This document shows, in pieces, positions 35,501 through 62,400 of a stretch of 64,000 bases of DNA; the first letter of the stretch is position 1, and every line of letters begins with the position of its first letter. The stretch comes from Amoebophrya sp. A120. Its lineage: Eukaryota; Protista; Dinoflagellata. The notes under the pieces were generated by a model. That model was not told the DNA's origin, did not search any database, and was given only the letters and a program-made list of their open reading frames with translations. The DNA lies in the NCBI GenBank assembly GCA_905178155.1, contig CAJINV010000004.1, positions 2,502,228 to 2,566,227 of the forward strand, read 5' to 3'. Both the position numbers and the translations under genes were made by a program.

Positions 35501-38500
35501 ACGGTGCGCGCGGCTCCCCTCATTGGCACTTGTCTTGAGCCCCTGGCCATTTGTCCCGATTCCCTTGCCGTGTCCTCGCTGGCAGGCCGCGCCCCTGCCC
35601 CCGCTTTGCCGCGTTGTCTCCGATTCCGCGTTCGTTGTTCATGATGTTTTCTTTTTATCTCAGCCAAAAAATACTATACCCAACTACGACCCCATTTATG
35701 TATCGAAGTAGTTCCGGTTTTCTACCTTACCAGCACGGCTCTTCTTAGTCTTTTCTACATTCACGACCTACATACTTCCTTATCCTATATTACGCCCCCA
35801 CCAGCCACTTGCTGGAAAAAAAAAGAACCGCGACACGGTTTTCCTGGATGTTTTGGAAAAAGCACAGCCGGTGGGGGGGGACCACAGGAGTCACCCCCCC
35901 GCTAGCTGCGCGGCTGTTGAAGTATCTGCTTCTACTTTTTACATGATGCTTGTCTACAATTTTAATGTTTGTCATGACCCATGATGCATGTTTGTCATGA
36001 CCCATGATGCTTGTGATGCATGACCTAGCATCGCAGACATTTAGAGGGCTTCCTGATGCACCTTCCGCATGAGAAATGCCCTGTCCGGGTAGCACAAACT
36101 GCGCCCCTCTTGCTGGTCATGCAATACAATTTTTTTTACCGTCCAAGAACAGCATGACAGGTTGCATTCTTCCAGACCCAGACATTTTTACATTTGATAC
36201 ACCAGCAGGCTCTTCAATTCTTCGCGCTTCCGCATCCACAAATGATAATCTTCGTCGCCCTGCTCGGGTTTCGACGCCTCCCAGGGCGCGATCGCTGTGG
36301 TGAGCTCGGCTATGTCGCGCTGGCGGCCGCTGGCCTCGGAATAGACAAACTCCATGTCTTTGGTCAACCCCATCTGCTCGTAGGTAGAGGAAATAATCAT
36401 GGCGAGAACCAGCTGCTTCATCAACATCTTGGTCGCCGAGTACCCTGGCAGGAACAACGACATGAGAAAGTGGAACAACGAGTGCCAGGGCTCGCTGGTC
36501 GCCGGACACATGCCGCTGACGTGCGCCGCGGGACCGATCAGGACCATGATGAAGAGGTGCCAGAAGCTGTACCGCCCGGGGAACATCATGTCGGCAAACA
36601 CGATGAGAATGGGGATCATGCAGGCGACGAAATACGGTGTCCGGCTGTAGACCTTTTCCAACGTTTCTTGGTTATCAATCACCAACGCGAGAAACGCGGC
36701 GACGAGAAAAGTACTCGACAGCGTGCAGAGCGGCGTGAAAAAAAACACCATCGCGGAGCCCTCCGCGAAGAAAAAGTAGCTATCACCCTTGACCGCCTGC
36801 GGCATGATGAACAGGAAGAAGGACTGGAGCATAAACCCGGGAAGTAGGGTTATAACCGCGAATAGGTAGTGTGACAGCCAGTAGATCGTTCTGCTCACGC
36901 CGTTATGAACCGCAAATAGGTCTGGGTTACTGGCGGCACGACGGGCCACAGACGACGCCCTGAGAACCCACGAAGATCCTGAAAAGATCACCCCCGACAC
37001 TCCAGAGGGAGGGGTCGGAAAGATTCGGAGCGTCCGCCCCTCTGTAGCTTCCAGGGACAGCCTGCCGACGAAAGGGAAGCATAGACCGCTCGTGTAACGC
37101 GCGTTACACGAAGGTATGGTAGATGTGAGAAAGGGCAGACGCCCCGCGGGCGTTGCCACAGGCGTTAGCTTGCTGGGAGTGACGAATAACCACGCCCAAC
37201 AAAGGCGAGCGAGTGGTCGAGCGGTTGTAAAAGCCCTGGCGCGACGCGGAACAATCTGGGGCCCGGCAATGGACGGAATTGCCCCCGTCCGCAGGGTCCA
37301 TCTCGCTTCCATGGGCCAGATATACCCGAGCCCGAGGGCAAGGCCAGGTCGGAAATGGTCCAGCAAAAGACGGCGCACTAGCCCCAAAGCGAGTTTTTTT
37401 TTTGATTCAAAAACGAAGCCGCTGAATTTGTTGAATCAAAGAAACAGCATGTGTTTCAAGGGTAGAGAGGCCACTTCTTGAACCCCGAACAAAGGATCCG
37501 ACCAAGGTTCAAACAAGGTTCAAAGTCGCCAATCACGGGGGTATGGCAAAAGCTTCAGAGGCCAAAAAAAAGCTACTAAAAAGTTCCGAGCAAGATCCGA
37601 TAAAGTTCCGATCAAGATCCTGTCCAGAGGACACTTTTTTGGCCACTTTTTTGCGCCGCCAAATCCGTAGATTCTAGGCGGGGGAGGGGCCAGGAAAAGC
37701 GGCGAAAAAAGTGTCCTCTGGACAGGATCTTGATCGGAACTTTTGAAAATGGAGATGGCGGCCATGAACTCTGGAAAATGGCCCCGTGCCTGGCCGAATT
37801 CCACTGGAGAATGCTCCTGAGTACAAAAATTGTGCCGCGGGGAGAAAACTCCCACCCTTGTTTGACATGTTTTCTGCAGGATTGGCCTGCCGATCCCGGC
37901 GACCCCAAGAAGCAAAACACTTGGCACTGCATCGCGCCAAAGGCCATCGCCTCTCTGCGGGCTCCCGGATGCTGGGAGGGCAGGTAGAATGCCTGCGGTC
38001 GAAACACCTCCGCGCCACCCCCTATCCAATGTCCAAGACTACCGCGAAAAAACTACAGAAGCACACCAGAAGGGGGGGCAAAAGGACACGCTGGCCGCGG
38101 CGGGCGGCGCGTTCCCTGACGGCTGGCCCGCGCCAAGTTTTGCGTGGCCGTAAAATACCGACATACCCCCGCAACAGGAAAAAAAATCGCGCTTCCCAAA
38201 CAGGGCGGCCCTCGGGGTAGGCTCGGCAGCTATGCGACACGCCCAGAAAAGGCCGCGCAAATTTGCTATACAAAGGAGGCAAAGCGAAGGCCAAAACATT
38301 GGGCCTGATTCGTAATTTCGGGGCGCCGAAGTAGCCCAGCGGCCAGGATCTTGATAGGATCTTTTTGGGATCTCAGACGAGCTGAAGTGGCCCGGCGTTC
38401 CGTGAGTAACTGGGTCTGGAAACATGAAAACTTCTGACGCGCGTTTCACACCAGACAAAAATCTGTCATGCATGGGCCGCAAAAGTTGCTCATTTGTTGT

Positions 38501-39320
38501 CTCCCAAAGGTGGCATTTGTCATGCGAATTAGGGATGGGAAAACCTGATCAAAACCTGTGATGCTGGGACTTGCATGCCAGAGCTTCTGTGTCATGCGCA
38601 AGCAGCATCACACTCTTCCAGACCCAGACATATTTGCATTCAGTATCCGTAGACCTGCTGGATCTCCATCATGCGGGACTGCTCTTCGCCGTAGATCACC
38701 ATGCCATACTGGCGGTACAGGAAGGCGAAGGGGATCGTGTAGCACAGGGAAAAGGCGAGGACGAACGATAACGGGAGAATCTGGGCGGCAAAGTTCGTTT
38801 CCATCGCTTCTCCGCCCTGGTGGTAGGCTTGGAACCCAGCGTAGTTGTTGGTTACGGGGGTCTATCAGATGCAAATATGTCTGAGTCTGGAAACTTGTGT
38901 TGCTAAGACTTCGATTCATTGCAGACTTTCTCCTTGTACGGCATAATAGCATGACAAGTTATCGCTATGCTCGGCTTATTGCGCTCGCACTCGTTCGCGT
39001 TTAGCATTACAAGCTGACTTCCAGCACGACAAAAAAATGGCCAATCGTATTCATGCATTACAGGTCTTATTGCCTTTGAAAACTTGCATTACACATTCAG
39101 ATCCACACATTTTTGCATTGCATAGGGTCCGGAGTTTATCCACGTCGTCCAGCATGAAAAAGACAAACCACCCGGACAACACCGCAATCACCTGGATTAA
39201 AGTGAGCATCACCCACTGCGGCCGCCCCACCACGTCGGCGTTCTTCTGGAGCAGGATGCGGAGGGTCAGGAGGGACTCCAGCATGTTGGCCCACGTGGGC
39301 GACTGGCTGGAACTCGTCAT
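14554..39320 (-). CDS. ABCA: ABC transporter subfamily A, full size (TMD-NBD-TMD-NBD), ~33 exons
   Basis: N-terminal LRILLQKN; GVSRTIYWLS. NBD1: GEIFALLGHNGAGKST, CPQDNPL, LSGGQKRR, ILMDEPTSGMDPQARR, FTTHYLEEAD. NBD2: GECFGLLGPNGAGKTT, YSGGMKRKLS, FLDEMSAGVD, TTHSMMEADATCDRVGI. C-terminal IEDYALGEPTMEQVFLKFA. Motifs become contiguous only after introner removal; start codon uncertain. Confidence 0.93.
14612..14873. mobile_element. Introner family A
   Basis: TSD CAGCT. Confidence 0.92.
15027..15253. mobile_element. Introner family D
   Basis: TSD TAAGC; inverted near-copy of 15300-15521. Confidence 0.92.
15300..15521. mobile_element. Introner family D
   Basis: TSD TGCCA/TTCCA. Confidence 0.92.
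16036..16165. mobile_element. Introner family J (130 bp)
   Basis: TATTCCCCGAAAATTT...AATTTTCAGGGAGTA; TSD TCCTG/TCTTC; removal deletes an in-frame TGA and joins PNDED-LQVLE. Confidence 0.75.
17053..17582. repeat. GC-rich minisatellite, 19-20 bp unit (CCCGGGGGATCCGCCCTCA)
   Basis: GGATCC-type core recurs at 17069, 17088, 17107, 17126, 17145, 17164, 17183 and onward; roughly 25 copies. Confidence 0.95.
17600..18760. repeat. 114-bp tandem satellite, ~10 copies, each with a 19-bp-stem hairpin
   Basis: Unit marker at 17640, 17754, 17872, 17986, 18098, 18212, 18326, 18440, 18554, 18668; GAGGATTCCGGAGAGGATT-TTGG-AATCCTCTCCGGAATCCTC. Confidence 0.95.
19476..19731. mobile_element. Introner family D
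   Basis: TSD CATGT. Confidence 0.87.
20517..20774. mobile_element. Introner family A
   Basis: TSD CCTAC. Confidence 0.9.
21348..21557. mobile_element. Degenerate family B introner
   Basis: TATGGATTGCAAAAGTAC...ATACTTTCGCATCGAAGTGGATA; TSD TTGAG/TTCAG; joins GYHLELN-LNLQ. Confidence 0.75.
21709..21995. mobile_element. Introner family A
   Basis: TSD CTGTC. Confidence 0.9.
22047..22285. mobile_element. Introner family E
   Basis: TATAGCGTTCTCAAACGTTACA...TGTAACAGTTGAGAACGCCATA; TSD GCCAC. Confidence 0.92.
23171..23404. mobile_element. Introner family D
   Basis: TSD CGATC. Confidence 0.9.
23450..23763. mobile_element. Introner family F
   Basis: TIR TATCCTGAGTAAAAACGT; TSD GGCCG. Confidence 0.92.
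24239..25549. mobile_element. Probable disrupted family F introner with a large insertion; left TIR not found
   Basis: F-like right end ATGTTTTCGCACACGATA followed by CGGCC; CGGCC at 24234-24238 restores frame; left boundary uncertain (24209 is an alternative). Confidence 0.5.
24845..25223. repeat. Four dispersed copies of CGAAATTTCAAAATTTTATTTTTA
   Basis: Copies near 24847, 24996, 25036 and 25199. Confidence 0.8.
25859..26007. mobile_element. Introner family B
   Basis: TSD CTTGG. Confidence 0.92.
26225..26461. mobile_element. Introner family F
   Basis: TSD CCTTC/CTTTC. Confidence 0.87.
27389..27641. mobile_element. Introner family A
   Basis: TSD GTGGG/GTAGG. Confidence 0.9.
27698..27938. 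mobile_element. Introner family E
   Basis: TSD CAAAC. Confidence 0.92.
28382..28638. mobile_element. Introner family A
   Basis: TSD CGACT/CCACT; right end mutated to AGA. Confidence 0.85.
28686..28838. mobile_element. Introner family B
   Basis: TSD CCGCG. Confidence 0.9.
29000..29149. mobile_element. Introner family B
   Basis: TIR TATCCTGTGCAAAAGTATCG; TSD GCTGT. Confidence 0.92.
29966..30217. mobile_element. Introner family H (E-related)
   Basis: TSD GCCTG; splits the D-loop GMDPQ-ARR. Confidence 0.9.
30272..30587. mobile_element. Introner family C
   Basis: TSD TGTCC; joins FGD-TPLILMDE. Confidence 0.9.
31506..31823. mobile_element. Introner family G
   Basis: TSD CCCGT; homologous to 37-346. 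Confidence 0.92.
31969..32273. mobile_element. Introner family I (G-related)
   Basis: TATGACACCCTCAG...CTGAGGCTGTCATA; TSD CCTTG. Confidence 0.9.
32337..32563. mobile_element. Introner family D
   Basis: TSD TTCGG. Confidence 0.92.
32696..33087. mobile_element. Introner family L (singleton, no octamer array)
   Basis: Perfect 26-bp TIR TATGGCGGCGGTAGCTCATTTATTTG; TSD CCTCC. Confidence 0.92.
34150..34320. mobile_element. Introner family B
   Basis: TSD CACCC/CGCCC. Confidence 0.87.
34373..34679. mobile_element. Introner family A (diverged)
   Basis: Left end AAT; TSD TCTGG/TCTGC. Confidence 0.8.
34796..35033. mobile_element. Introner family E
   Basis: Left end CAT; TSD AAGGG. Confidence 0.88.
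35086..36199. mobile_element. Family A introner carrying a ~0.8-kb poly(T)-headed insertion
   Basis: Family A TIRs; TSD CACCA; foreign sequence from ~35137 to ~35965. Confidence 0.85.
36904..38645. mobile_element. Family A introner whose left TIR is interrupted by a 1.48-kb transposon
   Basis: TSD GCCGT/TCCGT; removal joins MEIQQVYG-VSRTIYWLS. Confidence 0.85.
36927..38409. mobile_element. Non-autonomous TTA...TAA TIR element with central inverted repeat
   Basis: TTACTGGCGGCACGACGGGCCAC versus reverse complement TTACTCACGGAACGCCGGGCCAC; TSD CTGGG; central IR ~37603-37745. Confidence 0.85.
38863..39124. mobile_element. Introner family A
   Basis: TSD GGGTC. Confidence 0.88.
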
Positions 39321-44458: not shown

Positions 44459-47400
44459 TCAAAATTCTCCGTCGTACAACTCCTGCTGTTCGTAATCCCT
44501 CACCGTCGTTCTTCTTCCTCCTACTCCTCCACCACCACTATTGTCCAAAAACATCCCGCTCGCGGCCGTCGTGGTTCTCCGTTTCATCTCTGACAAAATG
44601 GCTTCTTCCGGAGAAGTGAACGCTTCGACAAACGGGTAGTAGTCGTCACTATCGGCCCCCTATCCTGTGCAAAAGTATCGTTGTACTCGTAGCGATTGCA
44701 TTTATGCATTACAAATCCCCTTTTTAAGCTGAAAGCGCATGACAAAGTCTAGTTGTAATGCTGAGCGAATTTGTATAATTGCAAAACTACGAGTACGATA
44801 CTTTTGCAATTCATACTCCCCCGCGCCCAGCAACTTCCCTCTCGACCTCGTTTGTTTTCAGAAAATCTTCAAAGTCACCCGAATTGTCCTCGCTGCTGTC
44901 AGAATTCGAGCTAGTGTCGAAATCCTCCATCACCAGTATGGAGTTCTCAAATGTTGCGCATCAGCTGTTACATGAATTTGTGATGCAAGAATGGCAACAG
45001 TCAAAGGGGCAAGCTTGCTGCTTTCGCATCACAGATTTGGCACAGATTTAAATGCTGTTTGGCCTCCCGGAGATTTGTCATGCGTAGCAGCTGGATCATC
45101 TGGCGGCTTAAGGCAGTCTTGCATGACAAATTCATGTAACAGGTGAGAATGTAACGTTTGAGAATGCCATAAGCATGCTGTTTACCCACCCGCGCTGCCG
45201 GCGCTGGTTCACGAAGGGGCTGGCGTTCATGAAGCTAAAGAGCTTGGTACTTCTGCTCTGCTCGGCAGGTATGGGAGTGGAAAATTTCGGGCTCAACGGC
45301 CAAAATTTCTTCAATTTGCGTGCAGATCAAGCACCAAGAAGTGTTCTCTTTTCGTTTCAGTGCCTGTAAATCGGTACCACATGTAAAAATCTTAGTTTCA
45401 TGCATCTTGACGCGGCGACAGCAGATCACAATCATCATCATCATTTACAACTTCAAAAAATCTTATCGTAAAGGTAAAGTAGACTTCAAAAATTCCCATC
45501 CCATACCCATGGGCGTGCCCGCACGCGAGGCAGGTGCGCCGGGTGACGCGCGCCCGCTGGCATTCTCGTGGTCTTGATCCACGGTGCTCCGGCGTCTGCG
45601 TCCTTTGGAACTCGTTCTCGCGATGACTTTCGTGCCATCTGTATCTTCCTCCGAATCTGGACCACGATAATCATTATCCCGAGCAGTTGTACTGCTACCT
45701 TGCTGCTGTTCTCCTCCTCCTGCCGCTTGTTCCCCGCCAAATACCTGCCCGCGGCCGAACAGCGCGGCTGTTGGGGTGGTCTTGCTCTTTTATCCAAAAT
45801 AAAAACGTCGTCCTCGCCCCATAGGTGTCACGCAAATTATCGATAGGCCGACAATGTTTCTCATGGATGTTGCGCAGCCCCAACTACATGAGAGGTATTT
45901 TCTAATTGTGTTTCGGAATAATTGGTCATGCTTGAATCATCGCGACAAGGTGCTGAATCTTTGACGCTTCTACACTACCTAAGCAGGAGGACTACAATAC
46001 GATCCCAAAGAACTTGTCATGCACACCAGCCAAAAGTTGTTGACTTGTCTTGCAGATTTCCCATCTTGACAACTCTGGGGTGGGGACGTTTTTGCTCAGG
46101 ACCTACCTTTCCAACGAAACCACGACCTTTTTCTTCTCTCCCACTGTCGTCCTCGATACTCGGCAAACGGTATGCATTGCAAAAGCATCGCACTTGCAGT
46201 AATTGCAATCATGCATTACAAATCTCTTTCTTGAGGCAGATCTGCATTACAAATTGCATTTCTCATGCTGAGGAAATTTCTCATGCGATTTATACTAGTA
46301 CAAGTGCGACACTTTTGAACTGCATAAACGGAAGAGATCGTTCGTTCCGGAAGAAACGTTCTTCGCAGTCGGTTATCAAACTGAAAAATCCTCCCTCCCC
46401 ATATCCAAGCGGAAATCTGTGATGCAGATTTGTGGCAGCTTTGTCATGCTAGAAGGGAAGAGATGCGGACTGTAGTGCTGGGTTGCGTGGAAAAGCCTTG
46501 CATCTTCAGCATGACAGGAGGCAGCTGGAAGTGGGAAACAGCATGACAAATTGCTTCCAAACGCAAACGAGGCCGCAGCTGCGCCTCTTTGCCTTCTAGC
46601 AATACAAGTGGACTTGTGTACTCAAATACAGCATCACAAATTTCGTTTTCGATTTGGGGAGGGGGGATTGTTCCTCGCGATATCGGTCCCACCCGCGTTT
46701 TACTGTCCGGCCGGTAGGGAAGCACCGCGTAGAGCGAAGCGGGATTTCGGTCCTGGTCGCTTTTCAGGCTTGATGTGTGGGTAACAGCAAGAAGCGGCGA
46801 AGCTGATGAAACCGCGGCTGTATTAAGTAGTGGCGCCTTGTTCGTGGTATTGAGCTTGGCTTTCGGCACGACCGGATCCTTTCGCGCCTGCTTCTCGTGG
46901 TCCAAGTGGCCTAGACTCTTGGCCGCCAATTCCGCCATTCCGACGAGAAACTCGTCCCGGGAAATCTCGTATCAAATGCAGATATGTCTGGGGCTTGAAA
47001 CTTGTAATGCTTAGTTGGAAATAGTGAATGCTCCGTAATGCACAGCCAAGCATGAGAAGTATTTTCGTGCCTAAGTGTGAGTGTTGCGGTTTTCGCATGA
47101 CAAACTGCGTTTTTGCATGACATGCAAAAGGGTGCGTTCTTGGACACGCATAACAAGCTCTTCAATCATGCCAGACAAGCATGACAAACCCTGCATCCTT
47201 CCGGACCCAGACAGATTTGCAAAGCATATCTCGCCAATCCCGTCGGCGTTAATTAAGTGGTACAAAATGCAGCGGTTCACCCGCTGGTACTGGTACCGCT
47301 TGACCGCTTGGATGTACTCCTTTTCCGAGATGCTGCCGCCGCCATCGCGGTCAAGGGCCTGCCAAACCTCTTCCAGGCTGCAGAGCGTGAAGGGTTTGGT

Positions 47401-50400
47401 GGTTTGCGAAGTAGTTGTTCCGTACTTTCCACCTTTGCTCGCCGCTGTCCTCAACGAGGACGACCCACTGCCAACACCTGTTGGAATAAAATCGTGGGCG
47501 GCGGGCAAATCCCGGCTGCGCGCGGTTTTGTAGTGCTCTGAGACCGTTTTGCCAAAAGCCATCTGCATGGAGGAGGCATGATCCTCTTCGCCTAATTTTT
47601 CTTTGCTACTTGTACTGGTGTTAATATTGGCAATCTGAACGTTTTTCTTTCCAGCAGTCGACTTACCCGGCGCGGATGATGCTGCTGCCCCGCCAGAGGT
47701 GCTCAGTCTCCTCCCCCCCGCTGTGGTGGGTGTGATTTGCACTTTCTTGTTGTTGCCAGTGGTCGACGTTGTTGTTCCGCTGGAAGAGGATTTGTTGCCA
47801 GTCTTGTTCTTTTGGGAAGTGGGAGAGGCACTGCGCTGGTCGTCTTTGGACTGTTTATTGCGGCCTCCACTAGCAGCTGTATTAAAACCTGTACCATTGT
47901 AACCCCCATCTGCTTCTTGTTCCTCATCCGTGCCCGCTGCTCTGTCAAACTCTTCCTCGCAAATCTCCGGCAACTCGTCGAGGTCTGCGAGAAAACTATC
48001 CCTCGCCCGCCCATCCGTGATGGTGATCCTCTTCCCGCCACCAGGGGCCGCGCTGGACGTGATTTGCACCCCCGAGCTGGTTATCAAATGTAAAAATGTC
48101 TGGGTCTGGAAGATTGCGAGGTTCTTTGTCATGCACGTTTTGCATGACTTTTGATGTCTGTGATGCATGCCCTAGCGTCACAGATTTTGTGAGGGCTACC
48201 TGATGCCTGTACCGCATGACAAATGCTCTTTCCGTGTAGCAAAACTTGGGCTCTCTTTGCTGCTCATGCAATACAGATTTTTTTACAATCCAAAATCAGC
48301 ATCACAAGTTGCATTCTTCCAGACCCAGACATTTTTACAGTTGATACTGGTGGTCGTCGTGAAGGATTGCCTATCAAATGTAAAAATGTCTGGGTCTGGA
48401 AGGTTGGAACTTGTCATGCTAACTCTAAATGATGCAGAAATCTGTGTTGCGTGAGTGCCAAAAGCTGTCCGCTTTTGACCAAGTTGAGAGGGGGTTTCTC
48501 ATGCAGGAAAGGCATGGTAGAGACCTCAAAGAATCTGTCATGCTGGGCCTCGCATTCCAGACCTCGTGGGTCATGGAAAACATGCATCACAAACCTGGCA
48601 TTTTCCAGACCCAGACATTTTTACAGTTGATATTGCCGTTTACTATTATTCGAAGAAGAGGAACTGGAGGTAATTATAGAAGCCCTGCCTCCACCAGAAA
48701 GAACGCTTCCCCTCTTCGCCCCGCTGGCTGTTGAACTACTCAACATTCCAGCCCCAACATCGGTTGAAAAGTTCGTTGTGTGCCGCCCTGCCCGCATCAT
48801 CTCCCGCCTCCGCGCCGCGCTCATCGGCGGGGGGCGTTGCGCTTTTAGCAAAAGTTTTTGCTTCGCGAGCTTCTCTGCGGTGACTTTTAACTTGAGGAAA
48901 AACACGAATTCCTCCAAACCAAGAAACATTTCCGACCAAATGTCGTTCAGAACCTTGTATTATCAAATGGAAAAATGTCTGGGTCTGGAAGGTTGCCAGG
49001 TGTGTCATACATATTTTGCATGACTCGGGATGTCTTTAATGTATGATCTAGCATCAGATACTTCTAGAGGCCTTCCTGATGCCTATCCCGCATGACAAAT
49101 GCCCTCCCCGCGTAGCACAAACTGGGCGCCTCTTGCTGGTCATGCAATACAGATTTTGTTAGAGTCCAGAGTTAGCAACACAAGTTGCATTCGTCCAGAC
49201 CCAGACACTTTTGCATTTGATATGTATTCGATCCAGCTAATGGACCCCTCCCGGGTCCGGTCGAGAAAACGAAAGCAGGACAAAATTTTGTTCTCGGAAG
49301 AAGCAGCTTGTTCACCACCTCCGGGAAGATTTGAACCTCCAGAGGCACCGGCTTCTTTGTTTATTTCCCTGTCCGTCCCCGAGTCGTCATTGCCGCTACT
49401 GTTGCCACCCCCAGAGGTACTGCTCAAGTTTAGGGCGGAAAAATCGGCAAATACCATCAATTTTGTAAGCTCACACTTTGGGGGGGTAATTTTTTCTTTC
49501 TTGTCCGGAAGTCAACTACCCGGAAATCAACAGAAGTAAAGCATCACTTCATCTTTTCCACGAGAAACGTGATAGCTCGGCTTTCAAAAGGCCTTCATAG
49601 CAAGACACGAAACAGGCTGCAGCGCCTTCGTGCTGCGCGTTGTCGCTCAGATGGCCCGGCAATGTTGAATAGGCCCGCTCTTCGAGAAGTGGTTGGGCCA
49701 CCTCCACCGGGACCGGACCACAACGAGGACGTTCGCCAGGAAGAGGAAACCCGGCAAGGGGGGTGGTCAGGGGGGTGCATTTTTGCCCCCTTCGGACACA
49801 CCTTCCGGGTACCCCTTCCGGGTACCCTTTCGGTAGCCTATTCCGACCCCCTAGTCCCCCTTGGAAACTGCTGATTTGGCATGTCCCAAAATGGTAGCCC
49901 AGTGGTAGCCCAAGCCGACCCCCTTACCCCCCCCCCTTCGGCACCCCCTCCGGAGGCACTAGACTGCTGGCGCGTCCGCATTTTCAACATCCGGCCGCAG
50001 AGGGAAGATGAGAAGATGTCTGGGCGCGTACGGAGTTGGATGTGGGAGAGGGGACGCGGCTCTCCGTGCCGGAGGGCCGCAGGCCTGTGCAACTTCAGCA
50101 AAGTGTTGCGGTTCTAATGGAAAAAGGGGAGGGCCGGAGGGCGGACCCTGACAACGAAGAGTGGCGCCAGCATCTATATGGCCAACAGGAAAAGAAGCAG
50201 CGTCGACAACCCCAACAGCCGTAATTTTTTTGCCACCCCAAAATGCGTGCTCGCAAAAATGATGGTATTTGCCGATTTTTCCGCCCTAACAAGTTAATCC
50301 CGATATAGAAGAAGAAAAGCTTGTAAATGTAGCTTTCTTGATGGAATAGCATGACAAATCTGTAACTGTATCGCATAGAGAGAGAAAACCTGTCATGCGC

Positions 50401-53400
50401 AGATGGTACTACGTGAAAACCCGCTTGAATGGACCTTGCAAAGCAAGCCCAGCATGACAGCCGCAATCATCTTGCAGATTGCGCATCACAAAGTTACACT
50501 GACAATGTTTTTTCTACTTCGATACCCGAGCCGGGCCAACCCCTCTTCCACCGTTTTCATGTATCCTGTGCAAAAGTATCGCACTCTTACGAATTGCATT
50601 ATTGCATTACAAATCTGGTTCCTAAGGCGAATCCGCATTACAAATTCGATTTGTAATGCTGAGCAAATTTCTTGTAATGCAATTCATACTAGAACTAGTA
50701 CGATACTGTTGCAATTCATATCATGGTCAACGTCCCAACGCGGAGCTTGTCCAAGAACCGGAAGCTGTCTGGCAAGGAATCGAAGGAATGAAGCATATAC
50801 ACTGCAAAAGTATCGTCATCGTACTAATTGCGTTTATGCATTGCAAATCTCTTTCTGAAGGCGAATCCGCATCACAAATTCAATTTGTAATGCTAAGTCA
50901 ATTTGTAATGCAATTTATACAAGTAGGTACGGCACTTCTGCAATGCATAAAGCAAGTAGATCGCCAACTCGCGCATGTGCGGGGGGGTTTCTTCCAAACT
51001 CATCCACCACTCGATATCGCGGCTTTCCTGCTCGAGATTTTTCAGGTCGACGTTCCAATTCCCGTAGACCGAAGCCATGGCGTATCCTGAGGAAAAACGT
51101 CCCCAACCCATAGTTGTCATGCAGATTTGCAATTACAGGGCGATTTGTGATGCGCATCTCCATGAGAGGCATTTCCAATCGCGTTTTGGAATTTGTAATG
51201 CTGTAAACAGGAAGATAACGATAAAGCAGATGGATTCGCGATGCGGTTGTCCTTGCTGACATGCACTACGCTACGGACTGCAACTTGTCATGCGTTGCTC
51301 GCAAAACTTCTGGATTTGTGTTGCTAAGATCCGAACTTGATTATCGCGTGGGGACGTTTTTACGTATGATATGGTGAGCCGGAAGTCGGTCTCTGCGAAC
51401 TCGGGCGCGCAAATGTACTGCACCTCGAGGTTGCCGCGCTTCGGCGGGTCGAGCTCCCAGGTCTTGGGGAGGTAGCTGGTTTCGGTAGTGGTTGTTTTTG
51501 GAGCAGAACTTTTTTACTTTTGTGTGTAGCTACCTCCAGAAAATAAATGTTGATGGTTGCAAGAAAGTGGAATGTGGCAGACCTCTCCTCCTGCTTGTAC
51601 TCCTTGCAATTTCATCTCATGTCAAGGAATTTCTGTGTCAAGAAATTTTTCATCGCATGAAAAAAAACAAATCAATTCTTCATAAGTACCCGTTCCAAAC
51701 CAAGTTGTCTGGGTTATCAAAGAAAATTTGATCCGTCGGCAAATTCTCGCCTTCCTCCATTTTCTCATACTGCAGGAGACTGTGCAACACAATTCGGTCC
51801 TCGTGGTAGCGCAAGTCCATGTGAAACCGATAGTTTTCCGGCTGCACGTAGGGGAATAAGAAGATACTCCCGACCCGCTTCCGCAGCCCCTTGGTCCACT
51901 CTTTGATCGGAATCGCGGATCGGACGACTTTTTCATTCAAATACCAATCCGTGCACCTCGTGCAATATGACCTGCAACAGTATCGCCATGGTATAAATGC
52001 ATTACTTTACACATTTCCTCAGCATGAGAAATAAAATTTGTCATGCTGATTTACCTTAAGAGCAAGATTTGTAATGCATGTTTGCAAGTGCTACGAGTAC
52101 GATACTTTTGCACAGGATATGCAATAGTTTACGACGATGTCTAGCGCCATTTTCTGCCCCAGTTTGTTGTTAATGAACAGCTGGAGCAACCTCCTCAATT
52201 GCTTGCACGTCAAGAAAATCTGATCGGACAGAATGTGCAGGGCGGATTTGTAATCCCGGATCCCCGTGTTCGACTTCAAAAGCGTCTCGATCAGCATCAA
52301 AACTTGCTCATCCGTCATCGTCGTCGCGTTTTTCGGCGGCCGCCGGCTGGAGAAAAAGTCGAACTCCAACCGAGCTTTGGTCGGCAGCTGGAAGGTGCTG
52401 TTCATTTCGAAGGGTTGGAGATTGATGGTTTCGTTCCGGAACTGGGATTGGTTCCCGAACTGGGACAGGTAGAGCTGCTGATGAGACGACTTACCACCAC
52501 CACCACCGCCACCATTTCCGCTGTTGAAATTTCCCGGCTTCAAATTGTTGGGTTTGCTATTCCAAATCTCGTTTTCCCACCGGTCGAGGTACAGCAAACT
52601 TTCCGCCACCGCGTAGTCCGCACACGATTCCAACTCCAGCGAGTATTTTCCACTAGGGTTTTCCGGAAGAAACGACAAGAACTTCTGTGCGTACAGTTTG
52701 AGTTTGAAGGTGTCCGACTTTTTCACGCAATGCTTTGCGATGAGCAACTGCGTTCGCACCATGGCGCTGCCCCGCCCGGAAACGGCGTGGAGGAGGTAAA
52801 ACAGGATTTTGTGCTTCAGCAGCGGGGCGTAGGTGATCAGCATGTGGCAGAAGGTGAGGGAGAGCGAGAAGTCCGCGGACAGGGCAAGCAGCATCAAATT
52901 CTGGTCCCGGGGGTCCTGGTCAAGGAAGGACTTCCACACTTTTGCGAGTTTTACTTCGGCGTCGAACCCCGCGGCCACGCGGAAAACTTCCCGCGCGCGC
53001 CGCAGGGTCGAGACGGAAAGGGGCTCGGACACCTGGTCCGGTTGCGCAGCAACGAGTGGCGCCGCTTGTTTGGCAGTTGTGTGCTGTACCTTTGCCCCCG
53101 TGGGCATTCCATTTCCACCTCGCGCCTTTGTTTGTTGTTCCGCGTCTCCGTTCAACTTCGCGTTTAGTTGGAAGGAAAACAAGACAATGCCGCTTGGCTG
53201 TATGGTGAACTGCTTTTTTTCAATGTCGTACCCGATTACGGAGTTGACCGGGACGGTTTTTTCCGCCAACGAATCACGATCCGTAAATTGGCAGTCCGGT
53301 AGAAGCTCCTTTAGGTACAGCAACAGGTACAAGACCGCCCTGCCGCCCGCGTCGAACAGATTCAGTCGGTAAATCCTCTGCGCCGCGGACTGCCGGAAAT

Positions 53401-56400
53401 TCCACAAGCTGTAGCCCAGCCCCTCCACCGCATTTTCGTCTGTCGGATCGATAATCTTCCGGGAGATCGCGCGGTTTTCCTGCTCCAGTAACGTTTCTGC
53501 GATGTTGGGACTAGCTCCGCCGGGGACAGCGCCGGCTTTGTTTACCGCATCCGTTGCGCTGGAAGACGAATTCGGCCGGCTGGTGAGATATGCAGTTTTG
53601 GAAGAACGAAGAAAGAAAATGTCGTGGTTGCCGAGGGATAGTACACAGATGAAAGATTTTTGCAGGGTGTTGACAGGAGGTTCCGGCGAAAGCTTTCTCT
53701 GACTGAGTGACAAACTGGACTGCAACTTGTTCTTCATACGTACTTGCAATGTCAAGAGTCTCGTGATAGGTGTGTAGTATCATGCAATCTGCTTTTCGAT
53801 ATTAGTCTGATCGTCATCGTACAGCACGCTACTTTAAACTTTACCCTTCATTTGCAAGCATACCTCACCGTTCCGCATGTTCATCAGACCCGTCCCGGGT
53901 CTGCCCTCTGCCGTAGCCTCCGGTTCTTTCCCAAACTGCCCCGTGTTACTGGTTGACAGGCCCTTCAAATTTAGGTTCTTCAACCTCGGGTGCTTCACCA
54001 GCGCGCGCAGCAACGACCTGCACCCCTCCGACCCGATCGCGTTGTCGTTGCAATTCAGATCGACCAGGTGCTTGTTGTAAAACAGCCCGGCTTCCAGAAT
54101 ACAGGCGGATTTCGCTGATAGGTGGTTCAAGGACAGGTCCAACACCTCGACCGAATTGAAATTCCGGATCCCCTCCAAAAAGTAGTTCAGCGGGTTCGGC
54201 TTCTGCCGTTGCTTTACCGCGGTGTTACTGATGTTTAACACCCGGAGGGAGTCGTGCTTTTCCAATTCCACACGGAGCGCGTTATACGCTGGCTCCTCGA
54301 AACAATTCCAGGACAGGTCGAGGTTTTTCAGCCGGATGTTTTCAAACAAGTTGTGAATCACCTTGTCCGCCTGGTCGGTCGGCAGATTTACATCGGAAAA
54401 ATTGATCGTCTGCACCGGTCTTTCGCCCAATAAATGACTCAGTTGCAGCATGGTGCTCGCGGAGATTTGCTTCAAGCCGGACAGTATGAAGTGCAAAAGT
54501 ATCGTATTCGTATAAATGCATTACAAATTTCCTCAGCATGAGCAATGAAATTTGTATCAATTTGTAATGCGGATTTACCTTGAGAAAAAGAATTGTAATG
54601 CATGATTGCAATACAAGTACGATGCTTTTGCATTTCATAGACAAGTACAAGTGCCGTAAGCCGAACATCTTCGGCAAACACACTTCCGTCAGCTGCTCCA
54701 TGCTGTAGTTTCCTAAACCGAAGCAGTTTTTCAGCGTGAACTTCTTCAGAGACCGCTTCATGTGGTCGGATTGGATAATACTGTGCAGGAAGGGCACGAA
54801 GCTGTCGTCGGTCAGTGCTGGGTTATCCGTCAAGTCAATGTGGGTCACCGGGTTTCGTTGAACCAGAACGGATATCCATTGCAAAAGTATCGCACTGGTC
54901 TAACTTGCAGCCATGCATGACAAATCTGTTTTCTTACCTGAATTCGCATCACAAATTCCAGTTTTCCTCTCGAGAGAGTTTGCCATGCGATTCATACTAG
55001 TGCGATTCGTTTTGCAATCCATAACGGACAACGCTTTCAAGTCGTTGTCCTGTAAATTGTCGTTATTCGCGACGAACTGTGTGGGGTCGTTGTTGATTAA
55101 GAACTTCTGCAGCGGGACCAAACCGGCGAGCTCACACATATGAAATGCAAAAGTGTCTGGGTCTGGAAGGTTGCAAGATTTGCGATGCAGGTGTTCCATG
55201 ACCCATGAGGTCTGGAATGCGAGACCCAGCATGACAGATTTTTTGAGGTCTCTATCATGCCTTTCCTGCATGAGAAACTCCCTCTCAACTTGGTCAAAAG
55301 CGGACAGCTTTTGGTACTCACGCAACACAGATTTTTGCATCATTCAGATTTAGCATGACAAGTTCTAACCTTCCAGACCCAGACATTTTTGCATTTGATA
55401 ACACAACTTTGCGTACGATTTCACCGCCTGCCTCTGGTCGTTTTTCGTCGCCTCCAGCATTTTTTTCAGTTCGTCCGGTGCGAGCTATCCTGTGTAAAAA
55501 CGTCCCCAACCCATAGTCAAGCTGGGAAATCTGCTAGACAAGTCCACAAGGCTTGGCTGTTGCGCATGACAGGTTTGGCCTCGTAGTGTAATCCTGTTTA
55601 GTTAGTTCAGCAGCATCACAAATCTAGCGCATCATGCTGATTGGAGCATGACAAATCCCGAAACACGACTAGAAAATGCTTCTCATGGGACTCCGCATGA
55701 GAAACATCTTCAGCATGCAGAATTGCATCCCAACTATGGGGTGAGGACGTTTTTACAAATGATACGAGCGACCGCATCTTCTTCCAATTTACCGGATCAT
55801 TTTCGAATTGCCGCTATGCATCGCAAAAGTATCGTCTTCGCAGTAATCGCAACCGTGCATGACAAATTCATTTTGTTTGAGGTAAGTTAGGATGACAACT
55901 TTCATTTCTCATCCTGAGGAAATTTGTGATGGTGCGATTTGGTTTTCTACCAGTACAATACTTTTGCACCGGATAGCCGTAGCGCATCGGGATTGTTCAG
56001 TAATTGTTCAAAATAGAAGGATTTGTACTCGGTTATCCCGCAGTTCTCCTCGTTTTTCAAGAAGTTGTTGGGCAGCATTTTGCCCGCGAAATTCGGATCG
56101 GAAGAGGAGAGCGCGCGGGAAGTTGTCCCAGACTTACCGCTTGTGCCAGACTTGCCCCCTGTGCCTTTCCCGTACGCGGGTAAACCAAATTGAAATAACG
56201 TTTTCTCCATCGGGTGGAGCGCCGCGAGTATCTCCCGCGGGTCGTCCTTTGAAATGTCGAACTTCGCTAGTTTGTCCCCATGCCACTTGTTTCGGATCTC
56301 CCGCTGCCACTTCCGGTGTTTGTATTATGGATTTCTCGAATGTTAATACACTCTCAGCTGTCACATGCTTTGTCATCCAAACTTACCATCGGCGTAGACA

Positions 56401-59400
56401 CGATCAAGCTGCTTCCCATGACAAATTCTCGAAGAGCCGAGCAGGGTCCTACTCTGTTCCAAATCTGTAATGCAGGACGCGCATCAAGGCCCCCCTCTTC
56501 ACTTTTGCCAGTCTTGCGTCACAAATCCATGGAACAGCTGAGAATGTAACAGTTGAGAACGCCAACATATGTATTTCGGGTCCTGGACCAGACGGGAAGA
56601 AGAGGAAGTCGTGGTAGTGGAAGTAGATGTGATACTGGTTGTGGAGGAGTTATGTTGGTTAATATGGTTTCGATTGGCAGATGATGTGGAATTTTTATCC
56701 GGCGCGTACTGGGGATACATGTTCAAGGCCCGCGGCATCGTGGTGCTCATCTGGTCCACCTCTCCGGGTATCAAAGAAAAAAACTGCTTTACTAGTGTAG
56801 GTCCGTCTCGTGGTACAGTGACAGCATGACAAACACAATCAGATCTGTTCTGCATCTGCATGACACAGCACCAGAAAGCCTGTAATGTTGCACAGCGAGT
56901 ACACGGAAACGCGTGTGAAATAGGATTTCATGGCTGGTGGCCAACATCCATGACAATCGTAAACTGTGTTGCATGCTTTGCATTACAGATTTACACGAGC
57001 TACACACTTTTTTCTTGCACCATACCAGCATCCCCTCCTACTTCCACCAGCGCGTCCGCCACACTCTGCCAGCTGTCGTGATTCCGATCCCCCTTTTTCC
57101 CAGCAGCTGCCAAGTACGCGTGCGTCCGCTGCATTTTGTCCAAGTGATAACTCGAGATCCCGGCGATTTTCAGCTTTTTCGCGTACTCCTTCGCCTCCTT
57201 TTTCATCAGATCCGGGCCCATCGCCAGGTTTTCCGCGCCCATCCAGGACTTCCGGCTGTCAAGCTTGAATTGCTGTTCGTTCTTTTTCTTAAAAGCGTTG
57301 AACTTGCTGCTGGTGTACTGGGACACATTACCAGTTCCGCCGGAGTTCTGACTCTTTTTACTCGCCATGGTCCCCAAAAACGTGTCCATGACTGATTGCG
57401 CGTCCTTGACGCACATGTGCTGCCCCCGGTATTTTGCCCCCGGGTCCTCGATGTCGCTGCGCTTCAGCCCCCTTATGGCCTGCTCAAACGTTACAATCTC
57501 AAACGGCACAATAGAATCTGGAATTTGTATTGCATGAAGAGCATGAGGAACGCAGAGAGAGTTGAGCTTTCCGCAATACAAATTTTGCCGGATTTCATGT
57601 GGGTTTGGGACTCCGAAACGTGTCATGCGCAATCCCATGGGAGTAGGCTAGATTTCATGCAGTTCTTGCATCACAGATTTCCAGCAGACTCTATTGCAAC
57701 AGTTGAGATTGTAACGTGTGAGCGGGTCATACCCCTCTTCGCGTTGTTCTGGTTATTCGCGAGCAGCTCTTCGACGCCGTGCAAACTGAGCGGCTTTCCG
57801 TATGCACTGCAAAAGTATCGCACTCGTAGTAATTGCAGTCATGCATTACAAATTTTTTTCTGAAGCTAAATACGCATTACAAATTTTATTTCTCATGCTG
57901 AGCAAATTTGTAATGCATTTATACGAGTACTATGAACGGACAAAATGCAAAACCGGACACGAAAAAAACCAAGAATAATCGTGATCCGCACCTTTTCGGC
58001 CGTTCGCGGCCAGTGTGTGCGAAGACGAAACGACAACGCCCGGACGGCCAACAACGAGAAGAACTGGCCGCAGGGAAGGCTTGACGCGGATGCGCAGGCG
58101 ATTCTTTTGTTGGGTTGTTGTTCGCGATCAGCCCTCTCTTCGGCCCAACACCAATACCCGAAACGAAGGCGCAAAGTCTTCACGCGAGACAGGCAACAAC
58201 CCCCGCCTGCGAGCTCTACCACCCCGCCCACCGAGCGGACTTCGCCGAGGCTTGTGGCCTGAAGTTGGGCCACAAGGAGTCACGCACAGGGGGCAACGGG
58301 ATACTAGAAAGAGCCTAGGCTTAGGCCTTCCGCCAACTTTATTTGAAGCGGGCCCTCCCATGCAAAGCGCTGGGATTGGGAGGCGGGGCGGACAGGGAGA
58401 GGCGGGGCTGTGGCCTCTGGTCTTGCATGGGCCCAGCCGCCGCTCGGCCCCTCGGAAAAATTGGCTGCGGAAAAATAGCTTAAAAGCTTGCAGCGTGCTT
58501 GGGGGGCTGCTTCCGAATTTGTTCGCATTTTTGCCCGACCGAAATTCGCGGGGAAGGGTCCCTCCCTTGGCTGCCGAAGGGGGCAAAACACCCACGAAAA
58601 AACCGTCGCTGCCCCAAGGCCATAAGCTGCGAAAAACCTTCAAACGCCTACGGTTTTAGGTGATGGGCGCTGGTTTCGCCGCGTGCAAAATTGCGAGCCA
58701 ACAACAAGAAAAGCAGCCAAAACACGAAAGGTGCCGGGGCCGCGACACTTCCGCAGGCAGTCGCGACCGGGCCAAGCGCGCGGCGTTTCGCTTCGAATTT
58801 GCAAGGCGGCGCGCAAAGTCCCTACCAAGAGTCTTGGTTTTTTCCAGGTTTTTTTACCCCCTTCTGGCCAATTCTTGGCCAAAAAGCGGCTTTTTGGCCA
58901 AGAATTGGCCAGATGGGGAAAAAAACCCGCGAAAAAACCAAGATTCTTGGATCGGCCATCTTTTGCGGCCCTGAATCGGCCTCGACGCCTTGCAGGTTTT
59001 TTGCCCGGCCTTGCGCACATTCAACGCTGGATATTTGTCGTTGGGCCCCTTCGCGACCGCCCGAAGAAACATCGCGGCCCCTGGGTTTTCCGCATTTGGC
59101 CTGTTTTTTTTCTGTTGCCGATTTGCAATTTCGCACGCGGCAAAGCGCCCACCCAACATACAAAATGGCAGGTGTGGATGAAGGCTTTCCCACACCCTTC
59201 GAAACATTGGACTGGGTGCGCAGGGGAAGGCAAGATGGAGAAGGATGGCGAACATGCTGGGGACTGGAGGGCCACCTTGCTAAAGTTGGGTGGGCTGGGC
59301 ATGGGGATGGAAAATAAAGGGGGGGGGGGGAGGCGCACGCCGGGAAGCACCCAGGCCCCTTCGCCGATCCGGTTTGCGCGGCTGATCGCCCTCCCCTGCT

Positions 59401-62400
59401 GGCGCTGGGTTCGGGTTTTCCCTTTTTTTTTCATGCCGAGACCATGATAACCACCGAGCCCATATTTGGGCAACACAGAGGCGAAACCAGAAACCCGGCC
59501 TCGCCGTTGCAAGCGCAATGGCGTAACTCATTATGGGCCCCCCTCGCTAGGCGGGCTGGCAGAGCTCGCGGGCGGGATCTGCTGTCCATCCCGGTCAAAG
59601 CCCTTGCGCCTTCGCTTCGTTTGTTGAAACTCGGCCGAAGAGCAAGCGGACCGCCAGCAGCAGCCCCGAAAAGGCTCCCACCCCACATCCGCGCCAAGGC
59701 TTCGCGGCCACCAGTTCTTGGCGCTGTTGGTCGCCCAAACATGGGCACCGCGTCGCCTCACGACCCAACTCTGAACCGCCCAAAAATTGAAAATCGCAAT
59801 TGTTCTTGGTTTTTTTCGTGTCCGGTTTTGCATTTTGTCCGTTCATAACGAGTACGATAACGATACTTTTGCACAGGATATTCCGGTCCTGCCGGCGAAG
59901 TTCGGCAGCGTCTTCGCTCTGGGGTCGCCGGGGATCTGCCGGAAGAAATTGCGCACCGTCGGGGACAGGTTGCTGGTGTTGGTGTCGTTCTGGATCCGGG
60001 ACAGCAATTGGTGCTCCGCTTCGGTCGTAGAAGTTTCATCAGGATCAAGTTCCGATTTGAAGTGGTCCGTTGGAGTTGGTAAAGGGAGGGAAAGGTCTTG
60101 TGGTGCTTCTCGTGTTCGATGATCTGGTTGGTGATGAAGACCTGGCGCAGCAGCTTTAGAAGTTGTAGTGTTGTTTGGATGCTGATGATGTCCCGGCTGA
60201 TGTGGTCCATGATTCCCCCCTCCTGCAGCTGCAGTGCTCATCACGAAATTCTTGTCCGCGAAGGGGTCGGGCGGTTTCTTGTTTAGCGGATGGTTTTTCA
60301 GTTTCAGCAACCGCTGCTCCTCGTCGTAAAGGGTTTTTGACGCAGCTTCTGCTTCACCGTCATTCATTCCGTTCTCCAGCAATGCCGATGTTGCATCGCG
60401 GTAAGGGTCGTCTTTTTCAGTGTCAGCGTGATTTCTGTTCCTCCCACCGTTCTTCGGACTCCCAGCTCTATGATTTCTTGTACTCGTTGCAGCTCCACCA
60501 CGACCGCCGTTTGCACCACTGAACAACTTATTTCCACCCGTTGTGTTCATCTGTTCCCTAGCACCTCCACCGGCTCCTCCGAAGCTTGGTTTATTTCCGT
60601 TATTTCCCGCCGCGTTGTTCATCTGTGCTCTCACCATCGGCGTGTCCTTGCCCAGCGCTTCTAACAACGTCTCCGAGTGCGCGAGATTTTTCGCACTAGT
60701 CGCCCTGAGCATCTGGGTGTCCAAATCCTCCTCCATCAACGCTAGTGGGGGCGGTAGGGTCAAAAGTCGTTCTTCCTGTTCCGATTGCAGTCGCTCCTTC
60801 ATCTCGTCATGCTTTCCCTTGTCCAAAGCGACCTCTAACCCCCGGACCACAGCCGCGCGCTTCTCACTGGTCTTCAGCCAGGAGGTTTGGTTCTTGGTGT
60901 CAAGGATTGTATAATTTTGCGGGTGCACGTGATTTTGATTTGTGTTGCTGTTTCTCCAAGCAGCAGCTGCACCAGCCGTTTTCGCCATTTGTACTAGTTC
61001 CTGCTGTTGTTCTGCCTCCACCATTTCTTTCGAGATCTCCACTAGCCGCCTTCGAAACAACTGGCCAGCTTCCTCGATTTGCTCGAGAACTTGGTTCCTC
61101 CTACTTTTAGAATCCAGTACACGCTCGTGAGGCAGGACGAGGTTCATCGCATGCTTGTTCTTGTTGCGCTTCTTGTTTTCGGAAGTTGTGGATGCTGGAC
61201 TGAGACTGTCAACTTCGCTCATCGTTCTCCCGGTCGTGAGCTGCATGCTCTCTTCGTCAAAGTGCACCGCTGTGTTCCTGCCGGATTTGTTCGTCGTTGT
61301 ACCTCTGGCTTGAGAAAAATCGCTTCTAGCTGTTGTCGGGGACATGTCCACATCGTAGTTCAAGTCATTAGTGTTGTTCGTCGTGGTATTTGCATTTGAC
61401 GGCTGAATTTGTGGCAACAGTGCCGCGTTGGCCTCCTCCTTCGTCACGTGGCCACCCACAGTCGTCGTGCCCATCTTGACCCCTTTGTTCTGCGTTGTTG
61501 TTCCCTGCTTTGTAACTCCCGTGGATGATGATGAACTCGCTTTCTTCAGCAACCCACTCTTCCCGCCCCCAGCCGCCGGCGTCGCTACTGACGATCCCCC
61601 GCCGAAGTTGGATTTCGGGCTGCTGAGTGCGGAGTGGTTTTGATTCGCTCCTGCTGCTTTAGGCGTCTTCCCGCCAGGCGTTTTCTGCTGCTGTAGTTCT
61701 CCTCCTGCCAAAGCCGCCACCTCGTCTCCGCCTAAAGCCAGTGCCAAAGTGTTCTTTCGCTTTTTTCTTCGACTGCCCGGTCCTCCATTCGCGTCGAAAT
61801 TTGTGTTCATCGGATCAGATGATCCAGGTCCTCCTGCTCCGCGAAGAATATTGTTTTTCGGACTGTACCCCCCGTCCGAGCTGCAATTCGGGCTGTAATT
61901 GTTGTTGTACATCAATTCTGAGGGCACAAACCCGCAATCGCTGCTCATCATGCTTTGCAAGTGCTGCTCAAACCGCGCATCGGCCATGGACATGATGCTG
62001 TAATCGTAGTAGCTCATGCCACTCATCAACATCTCCTCCTTGTCTCGCCTCAGCGCCCGCTCCTTCGCCTTTTTTTCCCGCAATTTCCTCGCGACGGTTT
62101 CGCTCGCCAGCTGCGACTCCCGAGCGGGTAACACCCGCTTCGCCTTGCCGCGGGTGCACCAACTAATCCGGTCGTCGGACCCGAAACGTTTAGTCGCGGA
62201 TTCCTTTTGCCGGAGGAGACTCTGCAACTGCGGCTGGTTTTTCACACGGTGGTAGTGGGGGAAAAAGGACTTCGCGGTGGTACTTTGTGGTTGTAGACCA
62301 ACAGCACCGTGCTGTTCCTGTTGCTCGTCGTCAAGATGATCTACTCGTGCGGCGGAGTGTAGGTTCTGCGTCTCCTCCGATCGGTCAAAGGGGACAACGC

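Follow-up and report, generated by a model that had tools for sequence, protein, structure and literature searches.

An 860-bp element with TTA...TAA ends lies in a gene of the marine parasite Amoebophrya sp. A120 beside one of the TAT...ATA introners that dominate the surrounding DNA, and the locus raises the question of whether such an element leaves the transcript as an intron and, if so, by which route. The DNA analysed (the window) was a single stretch of 64 kb, and the coordinates of the features considered here are collected in Table 1.

Anatomy and repeat status of the 860-bp element

The element starts with TTAGGG and finishes with CCCTAA. Its TIRs are perfect over exactly 30 bp and keep 87% identity when extended to 60 bp; perfect inverted repeats reached only 12-15 bp in 20 Markov-generated random sequences of 64 kb and similar composition. 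The GC content is 0.56, compared with 0.35-0.49 in 11 neighbouring TAT elements, and a search of both strands with the pattern GCAT[GCT]ACA revealed no octamer motif. An earlier sequence-only reading had described a GC-rich, octamer-free element of 860 bp with a 30-bp perfect TIR and the TSD CAAGT, and all of these properties were recovered. That both TIR and TSD are perfect suggests a recent insertion. The last TSD base and the start of the element together spell TTTAGGG (49429-49435), the telomere unit given for A120 (PMC7789003), which occurs here as a single unit only.

Table 1. Positions of the 860-bp element, its neighbours and the surrounding exons in the window.
Feature	Position	Strand	Description
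TTA...TAA element	49430..50289	.	860 bp, non-autonomous, multi-copy TIR DNA element; candidate non-canonical intron of minus-strand gene
Left TIR	49430..49459	+	30 bp perfect; imperfect to 49489
Right TIR	50260..50289	-	30 bp perfect; imperfect from 50230
TSD copy CAAGT, low-coordinate side of TTA element	49425..49429	+	
TSD copy CAAGT, high-coordinate side of TTA element	50290..50294	+	
TAT...ATA introner	50304..50524	.	221 bp, 4 octamer motifs, TSD CCCGA (50299-50303, 50525-50529)
Micro-exon	50290..50303	-	14 bp gross, 9 nt net; two TSD copies and 4 bases
Upstream exon	50525..50561	-	End of first EF-hand-like unit
Downstream exon	49223..49429	-	Gly/Ser-rich loop, then second EF-hand-like unit
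Loop segment missing in homologues	49308..49424	-	Most of the 41-aa loop; scores as coding
Second TTA...TAA element	36927..38409	.	1483 bp, TSD CTGGG, no octamer, nested in TAT introner

Both junctions of the element were spanned by contigs of DNA run X1 with 0 differences and a depth of 44-46 on the flanks, a support that is not independent, since the window may itself derive from X1. Inside the element, X1 contig depth was 132-969, which is not a copy count. Variant contigs with 3-17 differences were present in X1, and loose contig ends in X1 and X5 carried other flanks beside element sequence. The 860-bp element belongs to a dispersed multi-copy family. No second copy was found by blastn within the window, and no empty-site joint lacking the element was found in X1, X3 or X5.

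The longest open frame in the element was of 146 aa, and comparison of three open frames with Pfam gave no match at E 0.1 and no integrase-like frame; Rfam gave only 3 matches, each far under the gathering score. The element is therefore non-autonomous and MITE-like, with TIR and TSD and no transposase found. The TIR pattern had no match in viral contigs, and two metagenome contigs matching a 20-base TIR pattern (L001 and L002) were discarded as unrelated, showing no further likeness, partner TIR or TSD.

TAT...ATA elements with 5-bp TSDs number at least 43 in the window; they measure 145-392 bp, apart from two that are longer through nesting. They cover about 11 kb, and 1-6 octamer motifs were present in 42 of the 43. 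The 14-bp spacing to the nearest introner and the micro-exon of 9 nt net, both proposed previously, are borne out by the coordinates. As a special feature the micro-exon was rejected, because it is expected by chance: when 44 elements were placed at random 20000 times, 31% of the placements produced a gap no longer than 9 nt. Another very short exon of the same gene (48347-48371, 20 nt net) lies between two TAT introners. A further TAT introner (51083-51371) has a degenerate TSD, its removal is still needed for the frame, and it is probably an older insertion.

The interrupted gene and the site of insertion

The host gene is long, lies on the minus strand (46020-63241) and gave weak LRR and EF-hand Pfam matches; it contains at least 17 transposon-type introns. 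Removal of 12 elements, each with one TSD copy, produced a 781-aa open stretch (51611-46020). Retention of the TTA element (865 nt) breaks this frame, and a stop lies inside the element, so that either the element is removed or the allele is dead. When the TTA element and its TAT neighbour were both removed, each with one TSD copy, the product read LARLG-INL-SSTSGG. Downstream of the insertion, about 620 codons were free of stops and frameshifts; if the insertion is young, this open frame is no proof of selection.

Homologues of the host gene carry the labels Amoebophrya A25 (P0013) and AT5.2 (P0001), and a paralogue is labelled A120 (P0011); no protein identical to the host gene product was found in the homologue or representative protein searches. 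P0013 aligned across the insertion site with 87 identities in 170 columns, 41 of which form one gap, and P0010 and P0011 aligned across it in the same way, in one block. Left out of the junction comparison were P0001, which ends before the junction, P0012, which diverges before the site, and P0005, a repeat artefact. Opposite LGI of the window, the three homologues aligned across the site carry LGV, LNV and LSV, so the micro-exon Ile aligns with Val in all three homologues that cover the position.

A 41-aa Gly/Ser-rich loop starts at the insertion site and is absent from these three proteins. The loop had a coding score of 18.1, against an in-sample coding median of 17.7, and 4 of 132 non-coding pieces scored as high; this score excluded a hidden intron of 114-123 nt in the loop. 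Since the loop scores as coding, the 860-bp element is exonic rather than part of a hidden intron. These results indicated that the element interrupts a coding exon of a conserved gene.

The sequence-only reading had further regarded exons as a tolerated landing site for many transposons, a view that the long inserts examined did not bear out. Of four, three are nested in TAT introners, and the only exonic one, the 860-bp element, stands at the start of the lineage-specific 41-aa loop. Small as these numbers are, they do not favour exons as a free landing site. One of the nested inserts is the second TTA...TAA element, which has no blastn likeness to the 860-bp element and starts with TTACT instead of TTA and two purines. 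Its host is a TAT introner (about 36904-38644), whose TIR it interrupts; it contains an internal palindrome near 37600-37745, and its removal restores the sequence of the host introner family. Another, a TAT...ATA element of 1917 bp (57931-59847), lies within introner 57801-59880; its TIR is perfect over 45 bp, its TSD measures 8 bp, and its three open frames of 217-273 aa gave no Pfam match. The third, of about 850 bp (35140-35980), has a T run at its start and no TIR seen, and lies inside introner 35086-36199.

Three further segments are unplaced and stand outside this count. One, of 481 bp (8219-8699), has TGT...ACA ends and the 5-bp direct repeat AGAAC, and might represent either a solo LTR or an element of Ginger type. 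The second is a GC-rich insert (16938-19068) with two tandem arrays, the repeat unit being about 20 bp in one and about 114 bp in the other. In the third, inverted repeats (9655-10217) lie in a segment (9575-10580) flanked by direct repeats, each about 50 bp long, one near 9575 and the other near 10530.

Possible removal from the transcript and competing explanations

A contig of run X4, which is RNA by guess, joined 46368 to 46683 and 46963 to 47228. The joins skip 314 and 264 nt and correspond to the TAT elements 46374-46682 and 46970-47228, each with 5 further nucleotides; both introners belong to the host gene and lie downstream of the TTA insertion. Of the elements in the gene, 16 were tested, the two X4-supported ones included, and none offered an exact GT-AG cut. 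Taking X4 as RNA, exact non-canonical removal operates for two TAT introners of the host gene. Over 49223-50561, X4 contributed 0 records, and none inside the element; its cover is patchy, and this counts neither for nor against splicing. Raw RNA runs X6-X8 gave depth in 2, 2 and 4 of 30 bins, from repeat pieces only, the gene being uncovered.

On balance, we lean towards the 860-bp element being cut from the pre-mRNA together with one TSD copy, by hairpin-guided, non-GT-AG splicing that leaves the 9-nt exon. A transposase acting in trans would have inserted the element by cut-and-paste with a 5-bp duplication. In the pre-mRNA, the 30-bp TIRs are predicted to pair, with a pair probability of 0.93-1.0 at 29 of the 30 pairs (local fold) and a z of -8.5 against 20 shuffles, and this pairing would bring the direct repeats at either end into proximity. 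Cleavage within these repeats would restore the pre-insertion sequence, as seen for two TAT neighbours, and the micro-exon would be retained. The machinery would be the same as for the neighbouring TAT introners; if true, splicing would need neither the TAT triplet nor the octamer array.

Several observations argue for this hairpin-guided removal: the 781-aa frame that is open only once it is removed, the conservation of the host gene on either side with P0010, P0011 and P0013 aligning across, the exact removal of two of the gene's TAT introners (X4), the predicted TIR stem, the A25-type ends of TTA and two purines (PMC7789003) and the existence of A120 TIR introner families of about 630-1600 bp (PMC12130899). 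Other observations argue against it. The insertion is at the edge of a loop missing in homologues, so imprecise cuts would probably be tolerated; in-frame canonical routes exist and are unranked by homology; the location of three of the four long inserts inside introners hints at selection against exonic ones; and the TIR resembles the TAT end profile of the window weakly, its score being -1.0 where the median is 12.9, a value reached by 4.6% of positions in the window.

We consider it unlikely that the element is instead unspliced or poorly spliced, as a recent insertion knocking out or truncating the gene. The perfect TIR and TSD, the avoidance of exons by three of the four long inserts, the presence of a paralogue labelled A120 (P0011) and the fact that no RNA junction was seen in the patchy cover of X4 would all fit a dead allele, but spliced transcript pieces derive from the region downstream of the insertion, the roughly 620 codons there are intact, and long TIR introners are in print for Amoebophrya (PMC12130899).

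If the element is spliced, ordinary GT-AG junctions could also serve. The last minus-strand base of the high-side CAAGT and the first T of the TIR form a GT at 50290, and AGs lie 2 or 5 nt into the next exon. The resulting routes, 50290-49423 and 50290-49420, are in frame and stop-free, keep the micro-exon and cost 1 and 2 aa, which fall in the loop missing from homologues; the same repeat layout occurs in 15% of A120 canonical introns (PMC7789003). However, the donor GTTAGG is unlike GTACTT, the sole putative canonical donor examined in the gene, and exact removal without GT-AG is seen in both neighbours that have RNA support. Removal by the ordinary spliceosome along these routes thus seems quite improbable.

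Slightly less probable still is the removal of a single intron of about 1.1 kb comprising the two elements and the micro-exon, from the GT at 50525 to the AG at 49423 or 49420, with a loss of 4 or 5 aa. Both routes are in frame and stop-free, and 9 nt is very short for exon definition. All the GT-AG routes yield GINFST, GINFT or micro-exon skipping, and three compared products scored the same 134 bits against P0010, so homology does not rank the routes. A single intron would nevertheless lose a hydrophobic residue kept in P0010, P0011 and P0013, a separate stem is predicted for each of the two elements, and the micro-exon is part of the ancestral sequence fixed by both TSDs. The conserved Gly-Val, compared with the Gly-Ile of the micro-exon, mildly favours inclusion, this conserved hydrophobic residue being the only argument for micro-exon retention. 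The reading GLARLG-INL-SSTSGG proposed earlier thus stands as far as the open frame after removal of both elements is concerned; the exact peptide is not forced, the GT-AG alternatives scoring equally.

Finally, PIF/Harbinger MITEs have GGG...CCC-type ends and a 3-bp TWA direct target duplication, and a reading of the ends as TTA-GGG...CCC-TAA, with TTA/TAA as target site, was rejected as extremely improbable, since TTA on the left and TAA on the right are inverted and not direct repeats, a 5-bp direct repeat lies directly outside, the second TTA...TAA element also has a 5-bp TSD and its removal restores the host introner, and removal of GGG...CCC with or without the 3 bases leads to stops.

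Relation to described introners and significance

Introner elements of Amoebophrya have been described as an inverted repeat of 8-20 nt joining the ends, with a direct repeat of 3-5 nt at the exon borders (Farhat 2021, PMC7789003). The end motif given there is a TAT triplet, 7 bases and AAA in A120, and TTA and two purines in A25, and a shared mechanism was predicted for both; more than 60% of introns are without GT-AG ends, the U1 snRNA is apparently missing, and the mean non-canonical intron in A120 measures 240 nt (PMC7789003). Like these introners, the 860-bp element has a TIR and a 5-nt direct repeat at the exon border, is repeated in the genome, interrupts coding sequence, and is without coding capacity and without an exact GT-AG cut. 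It begins with TTAGG, as A25 ends do, and has AAA at positions 11-13, as A120 ends do, although with TTA in place of TAT (PMC7789003). It departs from the described introners in length (860 nt against the mean of 240 nt) and in TIR size (30-60 bp against 8-20), and from the dominant A120 type of the window in its A25-type ends and the lack of an octamer array, its splicing being only inferred. The element had been assigned to a different transposon class, an assignment that we do not follow: the 5-bp TSD and the T...A ends are common to the TAT elements, and TTA and two purines is the A25 motif. Judged by these sequence features, it is probably a different family of the same kind as the TAT introners.

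A120 introners derive from LTR, non-LTR and diverse TIR transposons, with 58 A120 families, and it was concluded that seemingly any kind of transposon can make introns (Gozashti 2025, PMC12130899). The long A120 TIR introner families of that study have 5-bp or 8-9-bp TSDs (supplement file 8). Among the long TIR elements annotated as introns there, fam38 (808-810 bp, '5-bp TSD, TA/TA Termini', classed as Ginger) agrees with the 860-bp element in TSD length and differs in its termini, which are TT...AA here; fam196 (811 bp), fam26 and fam71 (720-730 bp) and fam65 (627 bp, Mutator, 8-9-bp TSD) are further cases (PMC12130899). None of the 58 A120 rows, compared by description in a table that holds no sequences, has a length near 860 bp or TTA ends (PMC12130899), and literature outside subscription papers gave no report of the 860-bp family or of introner-made micro-exons in Amoebophrya. 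The earlier suggestion of a removal generic for TIR elements gains from the exonic position of the element, which must be removed if the frame is to be kept, and from several published intron-forming TIR families of Amoebophrya that differ in ends and TSD length; the idea itself is already in print.

Comparable systems are described in other lineages. Euglenid nonconventional introns and the non-canonical introns of Fritillaria borealis are MITE-like, with TIR and TSD, and are removed without GT-AG; in euglenids, a stem joins the ends, as proposed for the 860-bp element, whereas lineages, end motifs and TSD lengths differ (PMC11282704). In the dinoflagellate Polarella glacialis, introns of a single genome arise from fifteen classes of introner-like elements whose TSDs measure 3-8 nt, the splice sites being recruited from the TSD and the element ends; GT/GC/GA donors and AG acceptors are used there, while exact removal at the present locus has no such option (bioRxiv 10.1101/2020.10.14.339549).

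Taken together, the 860-bp element is a real, exonic, multi-copy TIR element and probably acts as an intron in an already described system. That many kinds of transposon become introns in Amoebophrya has been published, and the value added here is that of a test case and not of a new system. The removal of non-GT-AG introns in Amoebophrya is presented as an open question (PMC7789003), so the locus matters as a test: an element without TAT triplet or octamer array beside a 9-nt exon offers, at a single locus, a test of the features that the machinery needs. A more far-reaching reading, which we put forward tentatively and think doubtful as a whole, is that a TTA-ended, octamer-free family of the type dominant in A25 is active where TAT elements dominate the genome and is removed with single-base precision, with splicing that reads only the terminal RNA stem and the short direct repeat. 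If that reading is true, a 9-nt exon would be definable without any splice signal, TAT ends and octamer arrays would serve mobility rather than splicing, and transfer from one Amoebophrya lineage to another would come into consideration for the element.
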